Of a DNA stretch of 64,000 nucleotides, positions 13,020-56,761 are shown piece by piece. Source of the DNA: an uncultured Candidatus Saccharibacteria bacterium (lineage in GTDB: Bacteria > Patescibacteriota > Saccharimonadia > Saccharimonadales > CAYZZS01). Under the pieces are notes generated by a model that was not told the DNA's origin, searched no databases, and saw only the letters and a list, made by a program, of their open reading frames with translations. The position numbers and the translations under genes are program-made. The DNA lies in NCBI GenBank assembly GCA_964483035.1, contig CAYZZS010000004.1:10081-74080 (forward strand), written 5' to 3'. Each line of letters opens with the position of its first letter. Position 1 is the first letter of the stretch.

Positions 13020-13367
13020 TTAACTCCTTGTTATGTCTGCTATTACAGTGATTTCTTCCCGTTTCCGGCTCAACTTGTTTGCCTCAGCATCGACCAACTG
13101 CACGTCAAACCAGTACGTTCCTGGGTCTACATTCTCAAAATCGGCAGGAGTGATTTTGAAGCGTACTATTCCCTTTTCCGGCTCTGGTATGTCCGTAATT
13201 ATTTTCTGGATGGCTGCGGTAGTGTCATCCGCAGGGTTTTTGCTCTTATTGAGCGTCAGGTAAGCAGTCGCTCCTGTAAGGTCATACAGAGAGCCGTCAA
13301 CTTTCTTGAACGTCACCTTTATCGTTCTTGAATCGCCGTGGATGAGTTCATTGTCTTTGAGTTCCAT
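13020..13367 (-). CDS. Hypothetical virion-module protein (possibly Ig-like or decoration-like)
   Basis: 115 aa with a beta-rich pattern (IKVTFKKVDGSLYDLTGATAYLTL...GTYWFDVQLVD). It is coupled to the portal stop. Confidence 0.4.
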   Translation of the reverse strand: MELKDNELIHGDSRTIKVTFKKVDGSLYDLTGATAYLTLNKSKNPADDTTAAIQKIITDIPEPEKGIVRFKITPADFENVDPGTYWFDVQLVDAEANKLSRKREEITVIADITRS

Positions 13368-14692
13368 TATTCATCATCCTCGTCAGATTCGTTAGTACCG
13401 AAGTTGCCCATCTTCATGCGTTCATCACGCTCTTTTTTAGCCTTTTCGACCACCTCAGAAGCGTCCTCAACAAATGACAGTTGCGCCACTAGGGTTTCGT
13501 CGTCTACTTTTCCGTCCAGATTGTTGATTATCTGCGAAGTCTCAAAGTCGTTCTTCGGCAGCGCTCTGCGGAATACTAACTTAATAGCGTCTACGTCTAC
13601 TTGGCTAATCTTGGACTTGTACTGAAGCATAGTCAGATACAGCTCTAGGCGATTGCGGAGTCCAGTTGCCAGTAAGCGTTCCTTTTTCTTGACGTTCTGC
13701 TCAAAGGCTAGGAGTTTATACAGAATCGACACGCCAGATGGTGCATTGCCAAAGGTTTCATCTGTAAGATCAGGCGTCTTGGAGAACTTGTGTATATCGG
13801 CGGCTATGGTCTTGCGCAGGACGTCAGCATCAGCTTCATCGATGTTCTTGATGAGGTACTCGGCCTTAGAGCCTTCCGGCAAGCCAATAGTGCGATTTTT
13901 CTTTATACCTTCCTGATCTTCTTTCGTCAGCCTAGCGCCGTAAAACGCTAGTATTGCGTCTACCAGCTTCTCTCGGTCTAGTACTCGGTCAGATTGCAGA
14001 ATGTTGTATGCGTCTATCAAAGAAGTGACAGGCTCGTAGTCACCTTTCAGGCGGCGATTATTGAAATAGTGGATCACAGGCACTTCACCAAAGAAATGCT
14101 CTCTGTCGGGAGTATCGGGGACTTCCGTAAGGTCTGAGCCAGCTAGCCTACGGTGATGCACATGCGTTGGCGTCCAGATGGTTATGTCGTAATCGTCTTT
14201 GCTGTTGTTTATCTGGGCGTAGTACAGCGCTGCCATCTTTTCGTGCTTGAATGTGTCATCGTAAATAACGATGGTGTTGTAGACGCTTAGTTTAGAGCTG
14301 AGGATCTCGGAATCTTCATCAACGTAGACGGTCTCAAAAGCCTGTCCAAACATTGACAGATCTTCGGCTATGTCAGTATCTAGCTCCTCAATGCTCTGGG
14401 CTTTATAGGCGTCTATAAGAGGAGTGATGTCATCCTTGCCACCGGCTTTATAATCAACAGGGTTACCCACTAAATACCCAGTGTTGATAGAGGTGATGTA
14501 GTCAGCGAAGTTATGGATTGCCAGCAGCGGATTAGGGGATTGCCTGTCCATTTCTGGCTTGTCATCCATATACGATTCAAGACGCTTGAATATCTTGATG
14601 TTGTTCTTGTTGGCTTTTATCGCATCGGCGATGACTTCACCGTTTAGAATGTCGGTGTCTTTCGGTAGGGTGTATATGGTGCGCTTTTTCAT
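13367..14692 (-). CDS. Portal protein (SPP1 gp6-like)
   Basis: 441 aa, directly downstream of the large terminase, with an acidic C-terminus. Confidence 0.8.
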   Translation of the reverse strand: MKKRTIYTLPKDTDILNGEVIADAIKANKNNIKIFKRLESYMDDKPEMDRQSPNPLLAIHNFADYITSINTGYLVGNPVDYKAGGKDDITPLIDAYKAQSIEELDTDIAEDLSMFGQAFETVYVDEDSEILSSKLSVYNTIVIYDDTFKHEKMAALYYAQINNSKDDYDITIWTPTHVHHRRLAGSDLTEVPDTPDREHFFGEVPVIHYFNNRRLKGDYEPVTSLIDAYNILQSDRVLDREKLVDAILAFYGARLTKEDQEGIKKNRTIGLPEGSKAEYLIKNIDEADADVLRKTIAADIHKFSKTPDLTDETFGNAPSGVSILYKLLAFEQNVKKKERLLATGLRNRLELYLTMLQYKSKISQVDVDAIKLVFRRALPKNDFETSQIINNLDGKVDDETLVAQLSFVEDASEVVEKAKKERDERMKMGNFGTNESDEDDE

Positions 14693-16944: not shown

Positions 16945-17105
16945 ACATCCTCCTCAAATTGTTCATAATGCCACGTTATAAATAAATCGTAGATGTAATC
17001 GTAATGGTCTTGGTAGTCCATCGGGTGTTCCATAAGCTTTTCCATGTTGTCTCTGACGAACTCGGCCACCTCATTGGCGATAAGCTCCGGTTTGACGATG
17101 TTCAT
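16941..17105 (-). CDS. Small acidic hypothetical protein
   Basis: I trimmed the start to the ATG at 17105 (MNIVKPELIANEV), which overlaps the GT2 stop as ATGA. Confidence 0.45.
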   Translation of the reverse strand: MNIVKPELIANEVAEFVRDNMEKLMEHPMDYQDHYDYIYDLFITWHYEQFEEDV

Positions 17106-17689
17106 ACCCGTACCCCCTTTTTGAAGTAATCCCACGTTAGACTGCCCACTCGTTTGTTGTAGTAGTAGGCATAAATATCGGTGAATTTGCATGTCGGGTT
17201 TTTAGCTAGAAGCTCCCGATGGACTTTTTGATCTTCGTGGATGCGTACAGGATCGGGGCGGATGTCGCCTAAAAACTCACGCCTGATAAACTTGCCGTTA
17301 CCAACCCATCTATTGACGTTCTCTTTGTATATTCTGCGCTTTCGTCCATCGCTATACTGGATGTTATAGAAGACCAAATCTTCTCCCTTGAGCTGGTTAA
17401 TGACTCTATTTACGTCTGGTAGGAAGTAATCATCGCTATCAAGCTGCACGATATAGTCTGCTGTGGCTTCATCCATGAGTCGAGCGAGTGAGTAGCCTAT
17501 ACCCATGTTTTCATCGTTAGATATAAGGGTAATGCTGCGATTGTCGGATAACTTCTCGATGACTTTTAGGGTGTTGTCGGTGCTAGCGTCGTCGCAGACT
17601 AGTACGTTGCAGTTTCTAGGTATGGAGTTGATAGCTTGCCTGATCAATTCCTCTTGGTTGTACACCGGTATGATTACGTCAACGGTCAT
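17102..17689 (-). CDS. Family-2 glycosyltransferase
   Basis: Contains VIIPVYNQEELIRQAINSI...VCDDASTDNT...QLDSDD, a GT-A fold with DxD-type motifs. Confidence 0.8.
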   Translation of the reverse strand: MTVDVIIPVYNQEELIRQAINSIPRNCNVLVCDDASTDNTLKVIEKLSDNRSITLISNDENMGIGYSLARLMDEATADYIVQLDSDDYFLPDVNRVINQLKGEDLVFYNIQYSDGRKRRIYKENVNRWVGNGKFIRREFLGDIRPDPVRIHEDQKVHRELLAKNPTCKFTDIYAYYYNKRVGSLTWDYFKKGVRV

Positions 17690-19694: not shown

Positions 19695-19948
19695 ACCTTC
19701 GGCTCCTTTAGCTTGTCACGCTCTGCTTGAATAGCCCTTAGTGGGACGACACCATGCTCGTATTTCTGACTTCCTATGAGTGCAATTGGAGTGCCTTTTT
19801 GAGCTTCCAGCCTATCCAGTACCGCTTCTATTTGCTTATTGTGCCAGTCAATGATTGCTTGCTTGGCTTTGCCCATATCGGACTGACGTATATCGCCATC
19901 ATAGAAATCTTCTAGTATCTCATCTAGCTCTTGTGTGTTATCTGTCAT
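19691..19948 (-). CDS. Small hypothetical protein
   Basis: 85-aa ORF with 4-nt overlaps on both sides. Confidence 0.5.
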   Translation of the reverse strand: MTDNTQELDEILEDFYDGDIRQSDMGKAKQAIIDWHNKQIEAVLDRLEAQKGTPIALIGSQKYEHGVVPLRAIQAERDKLKEPKV

Positions 19949-20289
19949 AGCTCTGCCTCTATTTTGGCTATCACTTCTCTAATATCATGCAGCGCCAGCC
20001 TGTAACCGTGCTGCTTCTCTGGCATATGATAGCCGTACCTGGTGGTTAGCTGTTCAGCGGTTGGCATTGACTTGTCTAGCTCTGCTAATAGCTTTAGCTT
20101 TTCGGTGCGGATGAGGTCTAGTAGCTCTTCCTTGGCTGTAGCAAATATCTCGATGTGGCGCTCATCTTGCCACATGGTGTCACTTGCTCCATCAGTAAAC
20201 GCCTGCGATAGTATTTCATCGAGCGTCCGTAGTTCATCTTCACTAGCTTGATTGGTGTCTGTGCTAGTCATCATATCGCCTGTTCTCAA
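19945..20289 (-). CDS. Small acidic hypothetical protein (TDTNQASED N-terminus)
   Basis: 114 aa in the track. The likely start is the MMTSTDTNQ at about 20274. Confidence 0.5.
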   Translation of the reverse strand: MRTGDMMTSTDTNQASEDELRTLDEILSQAFTDGASDTMWQDERHIEIFATAKEELLDLIRTEKLKLLAELDKSMPTAEQLTTRYGYHMPEKQHGYRLALHDIREVIAKIEAEL

Positions 20290-20515
20290 TTTCCTGCTCT
20301 AGCTGTTCTGTTGTATATAGCTTTAGGCTATCAACAGAGCGTGAGTATCCACTGTTTTCAATGCGGTCATCTATTATGCTGGCATAACGACTAATGATTG
20401 TGCCTGTGCCACGCTCACTCCTGTTACCCTCTATCTCGTTTTGCATATTCCATAAAAGCTTAAAGATAGGTCGCTTATCTTCACTAGCTTGATTGGTGTC
20501 TGTGGGGCTGCTCAT
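20264..20515 (-). CDS. Small hypothetical protein (TDTNQASED N-terminus)
   Basis: 83 aa. It shares a perfect 28-nt block with the next gene. Confidence 0.5.
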   Translation of the reverse strand: MSSPTDTNQASEDKRPIFKLLWNMQNEIEGNRSERGTGTIISRYASIIDDRIENSGYSRSVDSLKLYTTEQLEQEIENRRYDD

Positions 20516-20527
20516 AATGATTTGTCC

Positions 20528-20942
20528 TTATTTAGCTCTAAAAATTACTACTGCACTTGGAAAAGGTGCTGAATTGCTAGATCCACCAAACTTGAGGCGA
20601 CCTTTGATAAAACGAACCTCAGCACCCCCCCCCGATAACGTAATCGTGCCACCAGCGAGTGTCAGTTCTTGCAGGTAACAAACAGACGACTAACGTGTTG
20701 CTCTCATACGCCTTTTTAACCCACTTACCAATCTCTCTACCGTAAGGAGGATTCATAAATACTCGTTCACCAGACCAGTCCTGTTCTAAGCCGTCATCAT
20801 CTTTAGTGAAGTAAATCGGACATTTGGCGTTTTCTGGCGTAGCACACGGATCTAGCGTGAAATCAAACTCCTCGTCGAGCTTGTCGAAGAAGTCTTGCGG
20901 CGTAGACCAAAGATCGGTCTTACTACTGAAATGTACCTGCAT
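20528..20942 (-). pseudogene. dam: Phage Dam-family DNA N6-adenine methyltransferase, frame-broken at a G9 tract (candidate phase-variable gene)
   Basis: The N-terminal ORF carries FMNPPYGR and ends ...WWHDYVIGGGC*. Removing one G continues the frame as GGGAEVRFIKGRLKFGGSSNSAPFPSAVVIFRAK*, ending at the TAA 20530-20528. Confidence 0.75.
20625..20633 (-). repeat. Homopolymer G9 (plus-strand C9) inside the methyltransferase gene
   Basis: Counted directly from the sequence: agca-ccccccccc-gataacg. Confidence 0.95.
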
Positions 20943-21176
20943 AATCTCTATCCCTCCTTAATGTAATGTTGTTTAGAAGCGCAGTCTGCCCCACACGGTA
21001 AAGACATCGTCATGCCTCAAGCTCGCTAAGTACCGCTATGGGGTAGGCTACGCTCCATTAAGGTTCTAGGCGAGGGGTTAGCTTGCATCGCACCAGGTCC
21101 TGTTGTTTCAAGGCACACAAGCCAACCATATCCCCGCCTGCTTCTGGACTTACACCCCGCTAGGGGATGCCGGGGA
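20943..21176 (-). ncRNA. Structured GC-rich leader / ncRNA candidate upstream of the methyltransferase
   Basis: Long-range helices verified by hand: 21118-21127 with 21076-21085 (10 bp), and 21040-21053 with 20979-20992 (12 of 14 positions). There is also a nested CCCCG/CGGGG pair. The region ends at the SD sequence AAGGAGGG. Confidence 0.45.
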
Positions 21177-21392
21177 TTAAATCTCTCTATCAAATTCATA
21201 TAAGTGGATGTCGTCATCCAGCCGTCTAACGTAGCGAAATTCTAGCCCATAATTCTTAACTTCGGTTACATCAATAGGTTCCGGCATCAGGCTAACGCTC
21301 TCTGACGGCTTCATGATTCTGACGCTTGGCAGAAGATTTGGGAGTTCAATCATAGAGGTAAACTGTCCATATTTAAGAATCGCTTTCATCAT
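21177..21392 (-). CDS. Small hypothetical protein
   Basis: 71-aa ORF. Confidence 0.5.
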   Translation of the reverse strand: MMKAILKYGQFTSMIELPNLLPSVRIMKPSESVSLMPEPIDVTEVKNYGLEFRYVRRLDDDIHLYEFDREI

Positions 21393-29562: not shown

Positions 29563-30911
29563 TTAGTTCCCGTCGGCTTTTCGCCGTGCTTATGTGTCAC
29601 GCGCTTTTCGATGAACCAGAACTTGATCGGTGTGCCGGTATAATCCCACACTTCGCGGAACTGCTTGTCCATGAATCGCTTGTAGCTCCAGTGCAGAAAC
29701 TTGGTGTGGGCGCCGAAGACCTTGAAGCTGGGGTTCGGATTGCCTTCTTCTTGTACTATGTAATTCAGCTTTGGTTCACGGTTCTTTAGTCCGGCTGGCG
29801 GGTGCATGCTGACGACCCTCCGCAGCCATTTGTTGAGCTCACGAGTCGGTATGCTTTGCTGGCGCCGCTCTGCGATCTCTAGCGTCAGATCAAACAGTTT
29901 AGTGACATTCTGACCAGTTACAGAACTTGTAAAGATTAGGGGTGCCCACGGCACAAAGGTGAAATTATGCTGGATTTGCGGCGCGATAGCATCCCGGGTA
30001 AAGGCATCTTTGTCGATGCTGTCCCACTTGCTGACGACCAGGATCAGTCCCTTGCCCGATTCCTTTATCATGCCGGCTATTTTCTGATCCAGGGCAACGT
30101 TCAGTTCATTGGCATCCATCAGCAGTAGGACGACGTCGGCTTGCTCGATAGCAGAGAGCGAGCGGATGACGCTGAACCGCTCCACACCTTGCCCGATTTT
30201 GCCGCTGCGTCGTATGCCGGCCGTGTCCAGTAGTTCTATCTCGTGCTTTTTGTAATTAATAACCGTCCGGTTGATGTCGCGCGTCGTACCGGCTCGGTCC
30301 GCGACAATTGCCTGCTGCTTTTTGGCCAGGGCGTTAAAGAGTGCCGACTTGCCGACATTCGGACGGCCGAGAATGGCCAGCCGGATCCGGTTTTCATCTT
30401 CGTCGATGCGCGCCGGCGGGATTTCCTGTAGCAGCTGCTCCAGCAGATCCTCAATGCCCCGGTTCTGGGTGGCGCTGGTTGTGATAATGGTCTTAATGCC
30501 CAGCTTTTGGAACTCGGTGATGTCTTTGCCCCTGGCCCGGTCGATTTTATTTACCACCAAAAAGACCGGTTTTTTGGTCTTGAGCGCCATTTTGGCGACA
30601 CGGCGATCTTCTTCGGTAATGATTGTGTTTGCCTCGATTACGACCCAGATTACATCGGCGCTGTCTGCGGCCTGCTGGATCTGCTCCTGGATGGTAAATT
30701 CAAAGTCGTCTTCCGGGTCCTTGATGCCGGCGGTATCAACCAGCCAGAAGTCGCGGTCCTCGTAACTGGCCTTGGCTATGATGCTGTCGCGCGTCGTGCC
30801 CGGTTCATTGGCGACGATGGCTTCGCGGCGCGAAAGGATGGCGTTAAACAAGCTGGACTTGCCAACATTTGCTCTGCCTACGATTGCGACAATCGGTACT
30901 TTTCTTGCCAT
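29559..30911 (-). CDS. der: Ribosome-associated GTPase Der/EngA
   Basis: Two G domains (GRANVGKSSLFN and GRPNVGKSALFN) plus a KH-like C-terminus. I moved the start to MARKVPIVAIVG at 30911, which avoids overlap with the upstream gene. Confidence 0.9.
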   Translation of the reverse strand: MARKVPIVAIVGRANVGKSSLFNAILSRREAIVANEPGTTRDSIIAKASYEDRDFWLVDTAGIKDPEDDFEFTIQEQIQQAADSADVIWVVIEANTIITEEDRRVAKMALKTKKPVFLVVNKIDRARGKDITEFQKLGIKTIITTSATQNRGIEDLLEQLLQEIPPARIDEDENRIRLAILGRPNVGKSALFNALAKKQQAIVADRAGTTRDINRTVINYKKHEIELLDTAGIRRSGKIGQGVERFSVIRSLSAIEQADVVLLLMDANELNVALDQKIAGMIKESGKGLILVVSKWDSIDKDAFTRDAIAPQIQHNFTFVPWAPLIFTSSVTGQNVTKLFDLTLEIAERRQQSIPTRELNKWLRRVVSMHPPAGLKNREPKLNYIVQEEGNPNPSFKVFGAHTKFLHWSYKRFMDKQFREVWDYTGTPIKFWFIEKRVTHKHGEKPTGTK

Positions 30912-37263: not shown

Positions 37264-37338
37264 GGCCTCATCGTCTAGCGGTTAGGACACCGGGTTCTCA
37301 TCCCGGCAACCGGGGTTCGATTCCCCGTGAGGTCACCA
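37264..37338 (+). tRNA. tRNA-Glu (anticodon CUC), CCA encoded
   Basis: Cloverleaf built by hand: acceptor GGCCTCA/TGAGGTC, anticodon stem CCGGG/CCCGG with loop TTCTCAT, and T arm CGGGG-TTCGATT-CCCCG. Confidence 0.85.
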
Positions 37339-38833
37339 AAAGAGACTCATTTGACATAGATGGGTCTTTTTTCATGCTTGCTAAGGTGTAAAGTGTGCTT
37401 AATTTGGGCGTTCGAAATTTATTTGTAGTCAGGTCGTATTCAAGCCCTTCTGGAAAGACTAGACGTTGGTAGATTATTTGATGTTCTATCGAGGCGTTAC
37501 TCCAAATTCGTGGTGCGTTCGACATAAAACGCATCGCATAATCTATTGCATCAGTTTTTAGTTCAGATAAAGAGCCGATACTGGTAAGGTCTTCCTGTAC
37601 AGCATCAGACTCAATCTTTATCTTAGCTACAAGGTCCTTCTTCTCATCTACTGTTATCTGTCCTGCAACAAGCATTTCTACAACCTTATTTCTTCGCTCT
37701 GTAAGCTGTTCTAAGACCTTGTGGAGCTTCTTTTGTTTACTGCTTAGGGTTTGCGTCTCTTCACGCCAGACACGTACTATTATCTCTTTTAAGAACTTCT
37801 CCATATCTGGGTCAGGAGTTAGTGATGACAGCAGTTGCAAGAATTGTTCATGTAGCTCTATTGTCTGTACAGATGGGACATGACACCTAGAACAGTGGTA
37901 ACGCGGAGAACGCTTACCCGATCCACCGACTGGACTACTGCCAGTCATATACTTATTACAATTTGCACACACGAGGAAACGTCTCAGAGGAAATTCAGGA
38001 TTATTCTTCTTGTATGTAGCAGCAGTGTTTTTGTTGCTTCTCAGTAGCTCTTGATTACGGTGAAATGTTGCAGGAGTAATAATCCCTTTGAATTTTGAAG
38101 GTATGAGCTGACCCTCTGTGTGACTACTTTGTTCAAGTCCTGCATAGATAGGATTACGCAACATCTTGCTTAGTGCCTGTATCTGCATCGGCTTGCCTGT
38201 AGCAGATTTCAACCCGATACTTTCACACAGCTTAATAAGACTAGCGATTGTGTAGGTACCTGTTGCGTATACTTCTAATACAGTAACCACCTTATCTGCT
38301 ACCCCCTCTACAGGTGCAAGCGTGGATTTCTCAAGTACATCTCTCACATTTCTCAGGCCGTGAGGTGCTTTACTCATACGCCAGCCCTCTTTTGCGTGGG
38401 CTTTCATGTTGTCTTTCACACGGACAGACTTAACCTTGTTGTCATGTTGAGCTAGTACAGCTTCTAAGTTCTGGATAAGCTCCTCATTAACGCTATCCTC
38501 AACACCTGAGTTGATATTCTTGTACTGAACACCTAATTTAGATAACAAGGTGCGTAGTGCGAAAAAGTCTGAAGCATTACGTGTTAGACGGTCTGTCTGG
38601 TATGTGATGAGATAGTGTATGTTACCCTTGTTCGCTTCAAGATACGCTAACATCTCTTTCATGGCAGGACGGTCGAGGGTTTTGGCCGATACACCGTCAT
38701 CGTGGTAGATTTCTTTAACCAGTACATCATTACGTGATGCCCAATCCTGACATAGCTTTTGCTGGATATCGAGACTAGCACCCTCTACTTGTTGAGTAGT
38801 TGATACCCGAAGATAAATAACTGCTTTTTTCAT
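37298..38833 (-). CDS. Large serine recombinase (integrase)
   Basis: The resolvase-type N-terminus is KKAVIYLRVSTTQQ. A recombinase domain, a zinc ribbon (CANCNKYMTG...RYHCSRC) and a coiled coil follow. Confidence 0.9.
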   Translation of the reverse strand: MKKAVIYLRVSTTQQVEGASLDIQQKLCQDWASRNDVLVKEIYHDDGVSAKTLDRPAMKEMLAYLEANKGNIHYLITYQTDRLTRNASDFFALRTLLSKLGVQYKNINSGVEDSVNEELIQNLEAVLAQHDNKVKSVRVKDNMKAHAKEGWRMSKAPHGLRNVRDVLEKSTLAPVEGVADKVVTVLEVYATGTYTIASLIKLCESIGLKSATGKPMQIQALSKMLRNPIYAGLEQSSHTEGQLIPSKFKGIITPATFHRNQELLRSNKNTAATYKKNNPEFPLRRFLVCANCNKYMTGSSPVGGSGKRSPRYHCSRCHVPSVQTIELHEQFLQLLSSLTPDPDMEKFLKEIIVRVWREETQTLSSKQKKLHKVLEQLTERRNKVVEMLVAGQITVDEKKDLVAKIKIESDAVQEDLTSIGSLSELKTDAIDYAMRFMSNAPRIWSNASIEHQIIYQRLVFPEGLEYDLTTNKFRTPKLSTLYTLASMKKDPSMSNESLLVTSRGIEPRLPG

Positions 38834-46908: not shown

Positions 46909-48198
46909 TCAGGGCTTTATGCGCAACAGAGGTAGCTCCTTCCAATTAGATACATAGCGGGGGCTGCGGGCCTGGCGCTTGGGCTGCCAGGCGGTGCCGA
47001 GATTCTCGGACGCGTAGTAGACGCGGCGTTTGCCAAAGCGTGTATTGATAGTATCAATTGCACGCATCATGGATTGCGACTGGTCGTGTCGGAGGGGGTC
47101 TACGGCGCCGAGCAGATCAGTTTGAAGACGATCGGCAGGTAAGAAGTCTTCTAGCCAGACACCCGCCCGGTGGTAGTATTTGCCGGGAATAAAAAGATCC
47201 ATGAGCAGGTCGACACAGGTAGTAATGATGGTTCCGGTGTCTGCTGTTGGGGCTGGCAGGACCGTGTGCTTGCTTTGTATCGCGTAGCCCGGCTTGTGCT
47301 TATTGGTGGCGATAAATACGCCGACTGTCCGAGTCAGCTGTCCGGAGCGTCGCAGGCGAAAAGCTGCGGTCGTAGCAAAGCTGGTGATGGCCGCTTCGAG
47401 TACATAGAAATCGCCGGTATCCTCGCCGAAGGTCCGGGTGCGGGCTATGCTTTTAGGCAGGGCTCCTTCCCGCTCAAGCGGCAGGCAGCTGGTGCCGTTT
47501 AGCTCGGTGACTAGTTGCCTGCCGCGGATGCCCATGAGCTGTTGGGCGTATTGCGGCCTGAGGCGGCTGACGTCCAGGGCGGTAGCTATGCCAAGGGCTC
47601 GGAGTTTGGGGGCGTATCGCCAGCCGATTCCCCATACGTCTTCAAGCGGTGTTGTCTGCAGATATGCTTCTTGTTGAGCGGTTGTGGTGTGCATGAATGA
47701 AAGCGCGCCGTCGCTGCGGGGCTGCTTTTTGGCCTGGGCTGCAGCTAGCTTAGCGAGTGTTTTAGTGGGCGCAATACCAACCGAGACCGGAATGCCTACT
47801 TCTCGCCAGATACGCGCTCTTAGTGCCCTGCCCCAGGCGGCGTAGTCGGTGATGTTCAGCTCGCTGAGATCTAAAAACGATTCGTCCACGGAATAAATCT
47901 CTATTCGGGGAGTGCTGCGCGTTAAGATCTCGACGATGCGGCGAGAGATATCGCCGTAGAGCTCGAAGTTCCCGGAAAACAGTACCACCTTGTTTCTCTT
48001 AAAAATATGCTGATACTTGAAGGCTGGCGCGCCCATGGGGATGCCGAGTGCTTTAGCCTCATTGCTGCGGGCCACCGCGCAGCCGTCATTACTGCTGAGT
48101 ACCACGACGGGCTTGCCTTCCAGGTCCGGCCTGAACAGCCTTTCGCAGCTGACGAAGAAGTTATTGCAGTCAATCAGCGCGAACACCGGCCGGCTCAT
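46909..48198 (-). CDS. umuC: Y-family DNA polymerase (UmuC/DinB-like)
   Basis: I moved the start to MSRPVFALIDCNNFFVSCERLFRPDL at 48198, which overlaps the upstream stop as ATGA. Confidence 0.85.
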   Translation of the reverse strand: MSRPVFALIDCNNFFVSCERLFRPDLEGKPVVVLSSNDGCAVARSNEAKALGIPMGAPAFKYQHIFKRNKVVLFSGNFELYGDISRRIVEILTRSTPRIEIYSVDESFLDLSELNITDYAAWGRALRARIWREVGIPVSVGIAPTKTLAKLAAAQAKKQPRSDGALSFMHTTTAQQEAYLQTTPLEDVWGIGWRYAPKLRALGIATALDVSRLRPQYAQQLMGIRGRQLVTELNGTSCLPLEREGALPKSIARTRTFGEDTGDFYVLEAAITSFATTAAFRLRRSGQLTRTVGVFIATNKHKPGYAIQSKHTVLPAPTADTGTIITTCVDLLMDLFIPGKYYHRAGVWLEDFLPADRLQTDLLGAVDPLRHDQSQSMMRAIDTINTRFGKRRVYYASENLGTAWQPKRQARSPRYVSNWKELPLLRIKP

Positions 48199-48533
48199 GA
48201 CTTGCTCCGGTAGCGGTGGATGACCGCGGTGACGACGCCCCATATCTCTGCCTGAGGCGCCATCTTTGATGGGAGAGATACGGCGAATGTACCGCCCTCC
48301 CACCACGCCACCAGGTCGGTTTTACGGGGCGTTAGGGCGCGGTCCACGATGGCGATATCGCCGCTGTATATCCCGGCACCGTTCCATTCGTCGCCTTCAA
48401 TGCGCATCAGGAAAGTACTGGCGCTGTTTCGGACAAGCAGCTGATTGAGATCCAGGAAGCGCGCCTTGCCGTCCGCTGCCGGGTTGGGAAAACCCCGGTG
48501 AATGGATACGCCGGTAGTATTCATGTCTTTCAT
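48195..48533 (-). CDS. UmuD-like S24-fold protein lacking the Ser/Lys catalytic dyad
   Basis: I moved the start to the ATG at 48533 (SD AAGGAG). GFPNPAAD...LDLNQLLV...GDIAIVD aligns with E. coli UmuD from memory, but GDSM is replaced by GDEW and the Lys position by Ser-Leu. Confidence 0.7.
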   Translation of the reverse strand: MKDMNTTGVSIHRGFPNPAADGKARFLDLNQLLVRNSASTFLMRIEGDEWNGAGIYSGDIAIVDRALTPRKTDLVAWWEGGTFAVSLPSKMAPQAEIWGVVTAVIHRYRSKS

Positions 48534-55303: not shown

Positions 55304-56761
55304 CTACAGTGCGGCAATCTGTTCGTCCATGCGGCGCAGTGACACTTCTTTTCCAAGGACTGCCAGCGTTTCGGCCAAGCCGGGGCTGGCTGGCGACTGA
55401 GTGGTTGCGATGCGGATCAGACTGAAGAGGACTGCCGGTTTTTGGCCGGTGATTTCCAGCAGATTATTTAGGTGTCCGGTGAGATTTTCTTCTGTGAAAT
55501 CGCTCTGCTCAAGCGCGGCTCTGCTTGTTGCGAGCAGCTCCTTAAGCTCATCGTTCGATAGCTTTTTTAGCTGTTTGTGGCCGGTGATTAATTCCGAATC
55601 TAGCGGCAGATCGGTGAAGAAGAATAGAGTAAGTTCGGGCAGCTCCGCATAATATTTGAGACGCTCCTGGACCAATTTCAGTACCCGTTTTTTGTATAGC
55701 TCGTCGTAGCTTTTGGCTTCTGGCGGCCAAAAGTCCTCTATTTTGACATAAAGTGTTTCCAGTGTCATGTCGCGGATATGGCGTCCACTGATCCACAGTA
55801 GCCGCTGTTCATCGAACTTGGCACCGCTTTTCTGCACTCTGGTAATATCAAATTTCTCGATAATTTCATGTCGGGTAAATATCTCCTGCTCGGTGCCATC
55901 GTTCCAGCCTAGTGTCACTAGGAAGTTCATGAGTGCCTCTGATGGGATGCCCATGGCTTTGTACTCCAGTAGCTGCTTGGCGCCTTTGCGTTTAGAGAGC
56001 TTTTGTTTGCCGTCCGGGTCCAGAACCGCCGGTACAGTCGCGAAGGTCGGCCAGGCAATACCGAGAGCGTCGTATAGGTTAAGGTATTTCGGTACTGACG
56101 ATAAAAACTCCTGAGAGCGGACAACATGTGTGATTTTCATAAGGTGGTCGTCAATAATGTGAGCAAAGTTATAGGTCGGAAAGCCGTCGGATTTCATCAG
56201 AATGAAGTCGTCTATTACTTCAGGTCCGGCATGGAGCTCGCCCATGACCTCGTCATGCCAGGTGTACTCTCTGGGTTCAGACTTCAGGCGCAGCGGCTGG
56301 CTGCCGTCCCATTTGGGCGGGTTTTTTGGCCGGTGGTCACGAAATAGAAAGGGGCGCTTCTCTGCCTTGGCTTTTTCTCTGAAAGCATTAACCTCTTCTG
56401 GGGTGTACGGGTCAGCATAGGCACGGCCGGCGTCTACCAGTTTCTGCGCCCACTCCCTATATATATCCAGGCGTTCGCTTTGGGTGTACGGTCCATGCGG
56501 GCCGCCCTTGTCCGGGCCCTCGTCCCAGTCGATACCCATATAGGCGAGCGTGCTGGTGATATTCACGACGGCGCCTTCAACTTCCCTCGCCTGGTCGGTG
56601 TCTTCGATCCTGAGCAGGAATTGACCGTCGTGATGGCGTGCAACTAGCCAGGCAAATAGTGCTGTCCGAACGGTTCCGGCATGCAGGGCGCCTGTCGGGC
56701 TGGGCGCAAAGCGTGTTCGTACCACTGCTTTTTTATCAATAGAAGCGCGATCCTCATTCAT
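55304..56761 (-). CDS. gltX: Glutamate--tRNA ligase
   Basis: Contains RTRFAPSPTGALHAGTVRTALF (HIGH-type) and KLSKRKGA (KMSKS-type). Confidence 0.9.
   Translation of the reverse strand: MNEDRASIDKKAVVRTRFAPSPTGALHAGTVRTALFAWLVARHHDGQFLLRIEDTDQAREVEGAVVNITSTLAYMGIDWDEGPDKGGPHGPYTQSERLDIYREWAQKLVDAGRAYADPYTPEEVNAFREKAKAEKRPFLFRDHRPKNPPKWDGSQPLRLKSEPREYTWHDEVMGELHAGPEVIDDFILMKSDGFPTYNFAHIIDDHLMKITHVVRSQEFLSSVPKYLNLYDALGIAWPTFATVPAVLDPDGKQKLSKRKGAKQLLEYKAMGIPSEALMNFLVTLGWNDGTEQEIFTRHEIIEKFDITRVQKSGAKFDEQRLLWISGRHIRDMTLETLYVKIEDFWPPEAKSYDELYKKRVLKLVQERLKYYAELPELTLFFFTDLPLDSELITGHKQLKKLSNDELKELLATSRAALEQSDFTEENLTGHLNNLLEITGQKPAVLFSLIRIATTQSPASPGLAETLAVLGKEVSLRRMDEQIAAL

Follow-up and report, generated by a model that had tools for sequence, protein, structure and literature searches.

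A G8/G9 homopolymer on the tri-glycine loop of a prophage Dam-like methyltransferase gene as a candidate contingency locus

The window, that is, the whole stretch of 64,000 nucleotides analysed here, carries on its minus strand a small Dam-like N6-adenine methyltransferase gene whose reading frame is broken at a run of nine G residues (Table 1). From position 1 to approximately 27–29 kb, the window is a siphovirus-like prophage. It encodes a tape measure protein, a Mu-F-like protein, an SPP1-type portal, and the large and small terminase subunits, and its early region holds exonuclease, SSB, and HNH genes. The dam gene belongs to the early region as well and sits among small genes of unknown function, between the replication and the packaging modules. 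Cellular genes start at approximately 29.5 kb and include those for the Der GTPase, a two-component system, tRNA-Glu, GluRS, a sortase, and PEGA, DUF3048, and DUF4367 proteins. The named relatives of the GluRS, at 67–70% identity, are nearly all annotated as 'Candidatus Saccharimonadales bacterium', and this similarity points to a CPR bacterium of the Saccharibacteria type as the probable host. A complete-looking siphovirus-like prophage in a Saccharimonadales (CPR/Patescibacteria) host is uncommon. Four contigs, in NCBI and Logan, carry the exact portal protein of the prophage, which shows that this phage has been assembled more than once.

Table 1. Positions of the dam gene, its tract, and the other features discussed, in window coordinates
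Feature	Position	Strand	Basis or remark
Prophage portal protein gene	13367–14692	-	
Short GtrB-like glycosyltransferase gene of the prophage	17102–17689	-	
Second small paralogue downstream of dam	19945–20289	-	
First small paralogue downstream of dam	20264–20515	-	
Out-of-frame rest of the dam gene	20528–20624	-	translation of the repaired gene; in the G8 frame, residues 106/107–137, AEVRFIKGRLKFGGSSNSAPFPSAVVIFRAK and stop
Truncated (OFF) frame, prophage Dam-like N6-adenine methyltransferase, 107 aa	20619–20942	-	ORF list; Pfam PF05869
Premature TGA of the G9 allele	20619–20621	-	T of Ala107 GCT plus GA of Glu108
G9 homopolymer (plus-strand C9)	20625–20633	-	sequence; encodes the conserved Gly104-Gly105-Gly106 loop
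Synonymous-conservation island (residues 102–110)	20611–20641		same columns in L162–L181
NPPY catalytic motif IV (Asn64–Tyr67), within FMNPPYGR	20742–20753	-	sequence; invariant in 26 aligned homologues
Strongly structured leader/intergenic region upstream of dam, 238 nt	20943–21180	-	fold
tRNA-Glu(CTC)	37264–37338	+	
Large serine recombinase gene	37298–38833	-	Resolvase and Recombinase domains
UmuC-like Y-family polymerase gene	46909–48306	-	host part
GluRS gene	55304–56761	-	

Several neighbouring features were noted in their own right. The 238 nt leader upstream of dam folds at −95.3 kcal/mol (z = −4.3), and none of 200 shuffled sequences did as well. It has no Rfam match even at E ≤ 5, and a scan of the whole window at the Rfam gathering thresholds returned nothing besides two tRNAs. 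The leader is missing from all the relatives that were fetched; there, a small gene directly adjoins dam. The leader may represent a structured RNA not described so far, or what is left of an insertion. Downstream of dam, two adjoining small genes are paralogues with a shared N-terminal TDTNQASED stretch. They also share an exact DNA repeat of 27 nt, at which the Logan contig breaks. The prophage further carries a short GtrB-like glycosyltransferase gene, a possible surface-modification moron. In the host part there is a UmuC-like Y-family polymerase gene, and a large serine recombinase gene whose 3' end overlaps the oppositely directed tRNA-Glu(CTC). The overlap may mark where a second mobile element, distinct from the prophage, has its integration module or att site.

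The product of the dam gene matches the Pfam family PF05869 (Dam) at 1.8e-29. The truncated form scores 91.7 bits (5.3e-26) and the repaired form 103 bits, against a cut-off of 28.1. The score against the NCBIfam equivalog TIGR01712 ('phage_N6A_met') is 82 bits, below the cut-off of 97.05. These profile scores place the protein as a Pfam-level member of PF05869, yet not as an equivalog of the curated TIGR01712 set. The alignment of 26 homologues gives VIGGGAEVRFIKGRLKF as a conserved motif of the closest subclade. An AlphaFold2 model (pLDDT 83.5) places Gly104–106 in a loop between a helix (96–103) and a strand (108–117), which is followed by another strand (128–134). Both strands are encoded past the tract and belong to the core sheet of the model. 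The best PDB fold matches of the model are N6-adenine methyltransferases, such as CAPAM and METTL16 (TM 0.63–0.69); a PDB search by sequence found no relative. The alignment, the model, and the fold matches together identify an (N/D)PPY motif IV on a Rossmann-type methyltransferase fold. The last two β-strands of the core sheet are missing from the product of the G9 allele, which in light of the model should therefore be inactive. The target motif of the enzyme is probably GATC, by analogy with characterised members.

On the minus strand, the sequence around the tract reads ...TGG TGG CAC GAT TAC GTT ATC GGG GGG GGG TGC TGA, and the 107-aa frame ends in ...WWHDYVIGGGC. This truncated protein is identical to P0015, which is recorded in NCBI and Logan. 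The earlier note, made from the letters of the window, had described a phage-type Dam frame with an NPPY motif that stops two codons past the G9 run. It had also proposed that a run of eight or eleven G would reopen a conserved C-terminus ending just short of the next gene. The minus-strand sequence and the PF05869 match bear out this description. With one G deleted, the frame continues as ...VIGGGAEVRFIKGRLKFGGSSNSAPFPSAVVIFRAK to its stop and yields a 137-aa protein with the conserved C-terminus of the family. The TAA that ends the G8 frame lies at 20528–20530, and the ATG of the next gene, at 20515, follows 12 nt further on. Compared with the in-frame G8 of relatives, the G9 of the window has one extra G, and the C-terminal part that is now out of frame shows no sign of decay: 28 of its 28 residues match those of L162, the closest in-frame relative.

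The C9 is the sole homopolymer of at least eight in the window. By chance, approximately 0.34 G/C runs of nine or more are expected in 64 kb, so the run by itself is unusual, not significant. What gives it weight is that it falls on a conserved Gly-Gly-Gly motif, together with the state of this site in relatives. The tract is a simple-sequence repeat of hypermutable length within an open reading frame, where a change of a single unit shifts the frame.

Tract lengths other than eight recur among the relatives of the gene. A protein search weighted to the N-terminal part found nine proteins of 107–112 aa, P0015 of the window included, and all of them end at the tri-Gly site. The last residues before their stops are GGGC, GGGR, GGGCRGAVY, GGVLR, GGVLRCGL, and GGALI. 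DNA was checked for five frameshifted lineages, of which four carry G9 (the window, also L001; L171, JGI Ga0075163; L179, JGI Ga0490003; and L181, on a 47-kb Logan contig) and one carries G7 (L180, on a 32-kb Logan contig). A DNA pattern scan of JGI metagenomes gave L171, which has approximately 77% amino acid identity and also ends in ...VIGGGC, as well as L170, which has G8. For three of the truncated proteins, the DNA confirmed the altered tract (G9 in L179 and L181, G7 in L180); when each was set to G8, the full-length conserved protein was restored. The protein ends imply three further G9 alleles, namely P0122 and P0124 (GGGR or GGGC) and P0127 (the extended GGGCRGAVY), and one further G7 allele, P0128 (GGVLRCGL). 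P0123 (...VVGGALI) is included in the count of nine truncated proteins and was classed as neither G9 nor G7. Counting DNA-verified and protein-implied alleles together, the ratio of +1 (G9) to −1 (G7) variants is 7:2. A query with the tail of the G10 frame found no G10-type allele of close relatives. P0132 and P0139, which this query covered at 95%, are ordinary in-frame homologues and were rejected as G10 alleles.

The 154 homologues retrieved comprise 23 full-length proteins with the tri-Gly motif, nine truncated proteins, all of which end at the tract, and 122 proteins without the motif, none of which is truncated (Fisher p = 2.7e-7). Roughly one quarter of the tri-Gly clusters are OFF. FRAMESHIFTED alleles at the tri-Gly tract are common and site-specific in the retrieved homologues. 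The central prediction of the switch proposed earlier, that natural alleles should differ in tract length, agrees with these data: G8, at least four DNA-verified G9 lineages, and one G7 lineage were found, and these alleles of different repeat number differ in ON/OFF state. Two of them, L177 (G8) and L179 (G9), are 98.9% identical.

To compare tract retention, relatives were picked by protein similarity alone, and their DNA was fetched afterwards. An uninterrupted in-frame G8 (GGG GGG GGY) is present in six lineages (L162, the closest relative, with 92% amino acid identity; L163/164; L172/173; L174–176; L177; and L178). The tract is interrupted in L165, L166/167, and L082, which read GGAGGGGGT, GGTGGGGGT, and GGAGGCGGT, respectively. 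G8 is therefore kept in six of the nine lineages picked in this way. Most of these lineages differ from one another at 0.55–0.9 of their four-fold sites, which amounts to saturation. GGG accounts for 15 of the 91 Gly codons in the rest of these genes, and it is the rarest Gly codon in the window (11% in the prophage part, 9% in the host part). The four-fold sites of residues 102 and 104–107 are the most conserved stretch of the gene, with the modal base in 33 of 40 cells across eight independent lineages. No sliding window gives a higher value, and among randomly drawn five-column sets 0.034% attain it (p ~3e-4). In a stricter test confined to the tract, both GGG codons are present in five of the eight independent lineages, a value equalled by 5% of other column pairs. 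The tract is thus probably retained by selection, with moderate statistical support and a borderline result in the tract-only test.

Around the tract, we noted an island of synonymous conservation that extends over residues 102–110 in the window and over the same columns in L162–L181. Every one of the 12 lineages in the codon alignment encodes Ala107 by GCT, even where the tract is interrupted, and so do all eight lineages picked by protein similarity; elsewhere, GCT makes up 32% of the Ala codons. Together with the GAR codon that follows, the GCT creates the TGA that ends the +1 (G9) products two codons past the tract. The constant GCT may result from selection to end shifted products quickly, from an SD-like pause site, or from another cause.

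Searches of GenBank phages, GTDB genomes, and IMG/VR did not extend the set of tract-bearing relatives. Megablast of the region against 50,697 GenBank phages gave no match, and tblastn gave only relatives of at most 69% identity, none of which has the tract. Scans of GTDB genomes and IMG/VR by protein alignment gave 160 loci, among which the tri-Gly motif was found in L082 alone and the tract in none. A pattern scan of IMG/VR for at least seven G followed by YGCTGARGT found nothing.

On balance, we favour the reading that the G8/G9 tract is a slipped-strand contingency locus and that the window captures it in the OFF state. The loop between helix 96–103 and strand 108–117 is coded GGG GGG GGY, which makes a G8 mononucleotide repeat, and slipped-strand mispairing during replication would add or remove one G. 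G8 would be the ON state (137 aa), both the G9 of the window and G7 would be OFF, and the opposite change would restore ON. Reversion should be frequent, as only the length of a repeat changes, by one base. Within a population of the phage or of lysogens, some genomes would then methylate and others would not. This would probably serve as bet-hedging: methylated DNA would escape classical restriction enzymes, at the cost of becoming a target for methylation-dependent (Type IV or DpnI-like) nucleases. In a lysogen, the enzyme could also alter the methylome of the host. The OFF share among the tri-Gly clusters suggests a high forward rate, and for a mononucleotide repeat this would imply a high back rate as well; on this reading, the tract would be reversible in vivo. 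A G8 tract measured in Campylobacter jejuni mutates predominantly by insertion (PMC3401435). The 7:2 excess of +1 variants agrees with that measured behaviour, and we count it in favour of a slippage switch.

A plain pseudogene is an unlikely explanation, although it would account for part of the pattern. On that view, the G8 would be a mutational weak point and nothing more; the +1 change would have knocked out a dispensable prophage gene recently and, in effect, irreversibly, and no adaptive switching would be involved. The OFF alleles are tips scattered among ON relatives, every one of them beside an ON relative, and this distribution also fits recurrent one-way loss. Prophage accessory genes are frequently lost, and the borderline result of the tract-only test leaves room for such a reading. 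However, if the tract were purely a liability, interrupting synonymous changes such as those in L165, L166, and L082 should have spread; instead, the tract persists in several lineages that are saturated at synonymous sites, and it is built from the rarest Gly codon. The OFF alleles themselves do not look like decaying genes either. None of the five has a second lesion, and the downstream frame is intact in every frameshifted allele. Read in the G8 frame, residues 107–134 of the five OFF alleles have an identity of 0.876 to ON alleles, against 0.892 between ON alleles, so that C-terminal conservation is not relaxed. The frameshifts are therefore recent or have been repeatedly reversed. The forward rate implied by the OFF share would be very high, and with it the back rate, which also speaks against a one-way loss.

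We also regard a sequencing or assembly artefact as improbable. In that case, the true sequence would be G8, the gene would be intact, and the ninth G would be a homopolymer miscall in the consensus. Homopolymers of 8–9 are a classic place for indel errors, and the repaired gene is perfect, as an error would leave it. Over 1123 aligned bases, the G9 among them, the Logan assembly of run SRR7082974 (L001) shows 100% identity; the contig is unbroken at the tract and ends at the 27-nt repeat further downstream. The NCBI and Logan contigs probably come from the same run and are not independent as to platform, but the second assembler worked from raw k-mers and still yielded G9. Frameshifts at the same tract occur in JGI, ENA, Logan, and NCBI data, on contigs of up to 47–79 kb. 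For three G8 lineages, replicate assemblies from different runs could be compared four times, and the tract was the same each time. The G9 lineage L179 and the G8 lineage L177 are 98.9% identical over 839 bp; apart from tract length, five SNPs and one 3-nt indel make up the differences, and no other homopolymer differs. The variants are mostly +1, as in slippage at G8 in vivo. The earlier note had named a homopolymer error as the trivial alternative. For the present assembly it retains some probability, and the second assembly and the comparative pattern weaken it.

Programmed recoding is very unlikely. Here the G9 would itself be functional, with full-length protein arising either from ribosomes that shift by +1 on the rare GGG codons or from transcriptional slippage on the G9/C9 run. 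Shifting by +1 at GGGG, of the sufD type, is a classical phenomenon. The tract repeats the rarest Gly codon and is slippery, the island of synonymous conservation surrounds it, and SD-like strings (GGGGGTG and GAGGT) are present. On the other hand, the shifted arrangement is not conserved, as the closest relative and most others have an in-frame G8, and the G7 alleles would require the opposite shift. A conserved RNA structure past the tract was considered as a frameshift stimulator and rejected, because the consensus fold of the 84 nt that follow the start of the tract is weak (−7.7 kcal/mol) and has no compensatory pairs. Thus, neither a conserved out-of-frame arrangement nor a stimulatory element was found. 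Some leaky slippage on the run of rare GGG codons is possible; a designed mode of expression is unlikely. An alternative genetic code with TGA as a sense codon is ruled out, as TGA ends nine of the 32 long ORFs in the window.

Of the explanations considered, we retain the contingency switch. A broader form of it can be put forward tentatively, and we hold it to be possible rather than probable. A whole subclade of environmental phage Dam genes, the gene of this prophage included, would keep G8 under selection, on a structurally tolerant tri-Gly loop, as an ON/OFF device, so that methylated and unmethylated genomes would occur together in every burst or lysogen population. It would hedge between classical and methylation-dependent nucleases and toggle the epigenome of an ultra-small host in the lysogen, and the conserved GCT-GAR would, as part of the design, stop the +1 product at once.

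The kind of switch is already known from phase-variable methyltransferases and from phage contingency loci. Host-adapted pathogens offer well-known cases of phase-variable methyltransferases, and phage contingency loci have reportedly been demonstrated only recently, for T-even coliphages. What is new here is the PF05869 family, the G8 on the tri-Gly loop across a subclade, the large fraction of alleles that are OFF in public metagenomes, and a host that is probably a CPR bacterium. If the contingency reading is true, the principle would extend to a widespread family of small phage Dam enzymes and to temperate phages of uncultured environmental bacteria, probably CPR. The ON/OFF choice of methylation would then bear on the arms race between phage and host, in which classical restriction stands against methylation-dependent restriction. 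Approximately one quarter of the tri-Gly members of the subclade are annotated as truncated in public data, and these would have to be read as OFF alleles, not as junk. The tract would also serve as a simple marker for heterogeneity in phage populations that can be read in existing metagenomic reads.

Bacterial phase-variable methyltransferases offer the first comparison. In the Type III mod phasevarions and in the poly-G Type IIG gene cj0031 of Campylobacter jejuni, a repeat likewise lies inside the methyltransferase ORF, and slippage by one unit changes the frame, and with it the ON or OFF state of methylation (reviews PMC12707154, PMC13076061). Tracts of G8–G9 fall within the measured hypermutable range (PMC3401435). 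The gene studied here differs: its product is an orphan phage Dam of the PF05869 family, 137 aa long, and does not belong to the Type III mod, Type I, or Type IIG enzymes. The gene is also prophage-borne in an uncultured host, with no restriction partner in view; among the annotated neighbours of dam, no restriction–modification partner was seen. The label 'phasevarion' used in the earlier note is therefore an analogy and not a class assignment, since the enzyme is an orphan PF05869 protein and its gene is neither a Type III mod nor a Type I hsdS. It may nevertheless work in the manner of a phasevarion, in which a phase-variable methyltransferase controls a regulon.

The Dam-like methyltransferase PamA, from a Staphylococcus aureus prophage, methylates GATC and alters host gene expression and virulence (PMC12435837). 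Such prophage enzymes can thus act on the host. PamA is likewise a small prophage orphan adenine methyltransferase with an NPPY motif, and its inactivating substitution P65T has the residue number of Pro65 here. PamA is not reported to be phase-variable, and we infer the shared family from the position of the motif and from matches to Staphylococcus phages. A poly-G tract in a phage methylase gene is cited, for Bordetella phage BPP-1, in bioRxiv 10.1101/2025.10.21.683753. In the BPP-1 sequence (L182, NC_005357), the gene bpm (bbp30, 29758–30513, minus strand) has a G8 at nt 585–592 that encodes ..PGGV... This is also an adenine methylase gene of a temperate phage with G8 inside the ORF. The encoded protein differs, being a PF01555 (N6_N4_Mtase) enzyme of 251 aa, and the tract is at an unrelated position.

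Phage contingency loci are the nearest in kind. The A-runs of T2/T4 agt and rIIA and the poly-G receptor-binding genes of Fletchervirus are, like the dam tract, coding homopolymers carried by phages. The T2/T4 loci undergo reversible ±1 frameshifts (Gomez, Barrick & Waters, bioRxiv 10.1101/2025.10.21.683753), a reversibility that is proposed for the dam tract. The A-runs were demonstrated experimentally in lytic coliphages, whereas the G-run described here lies in a methyltransferase gene of a temperate phage and its evidence is comparative and metagenomic. The closest experimental parallel to the dam tract is agt of phage T2, a DNA modification gene. It switches by ±1 in its A-run, with reversion approximately 1000-fold faster than that of a SNP, and different host nucleases, TgvAB versus McrA/BC, favour the ON and the OFF state (bioRxiv 10.1101/2025.10.21.683753).
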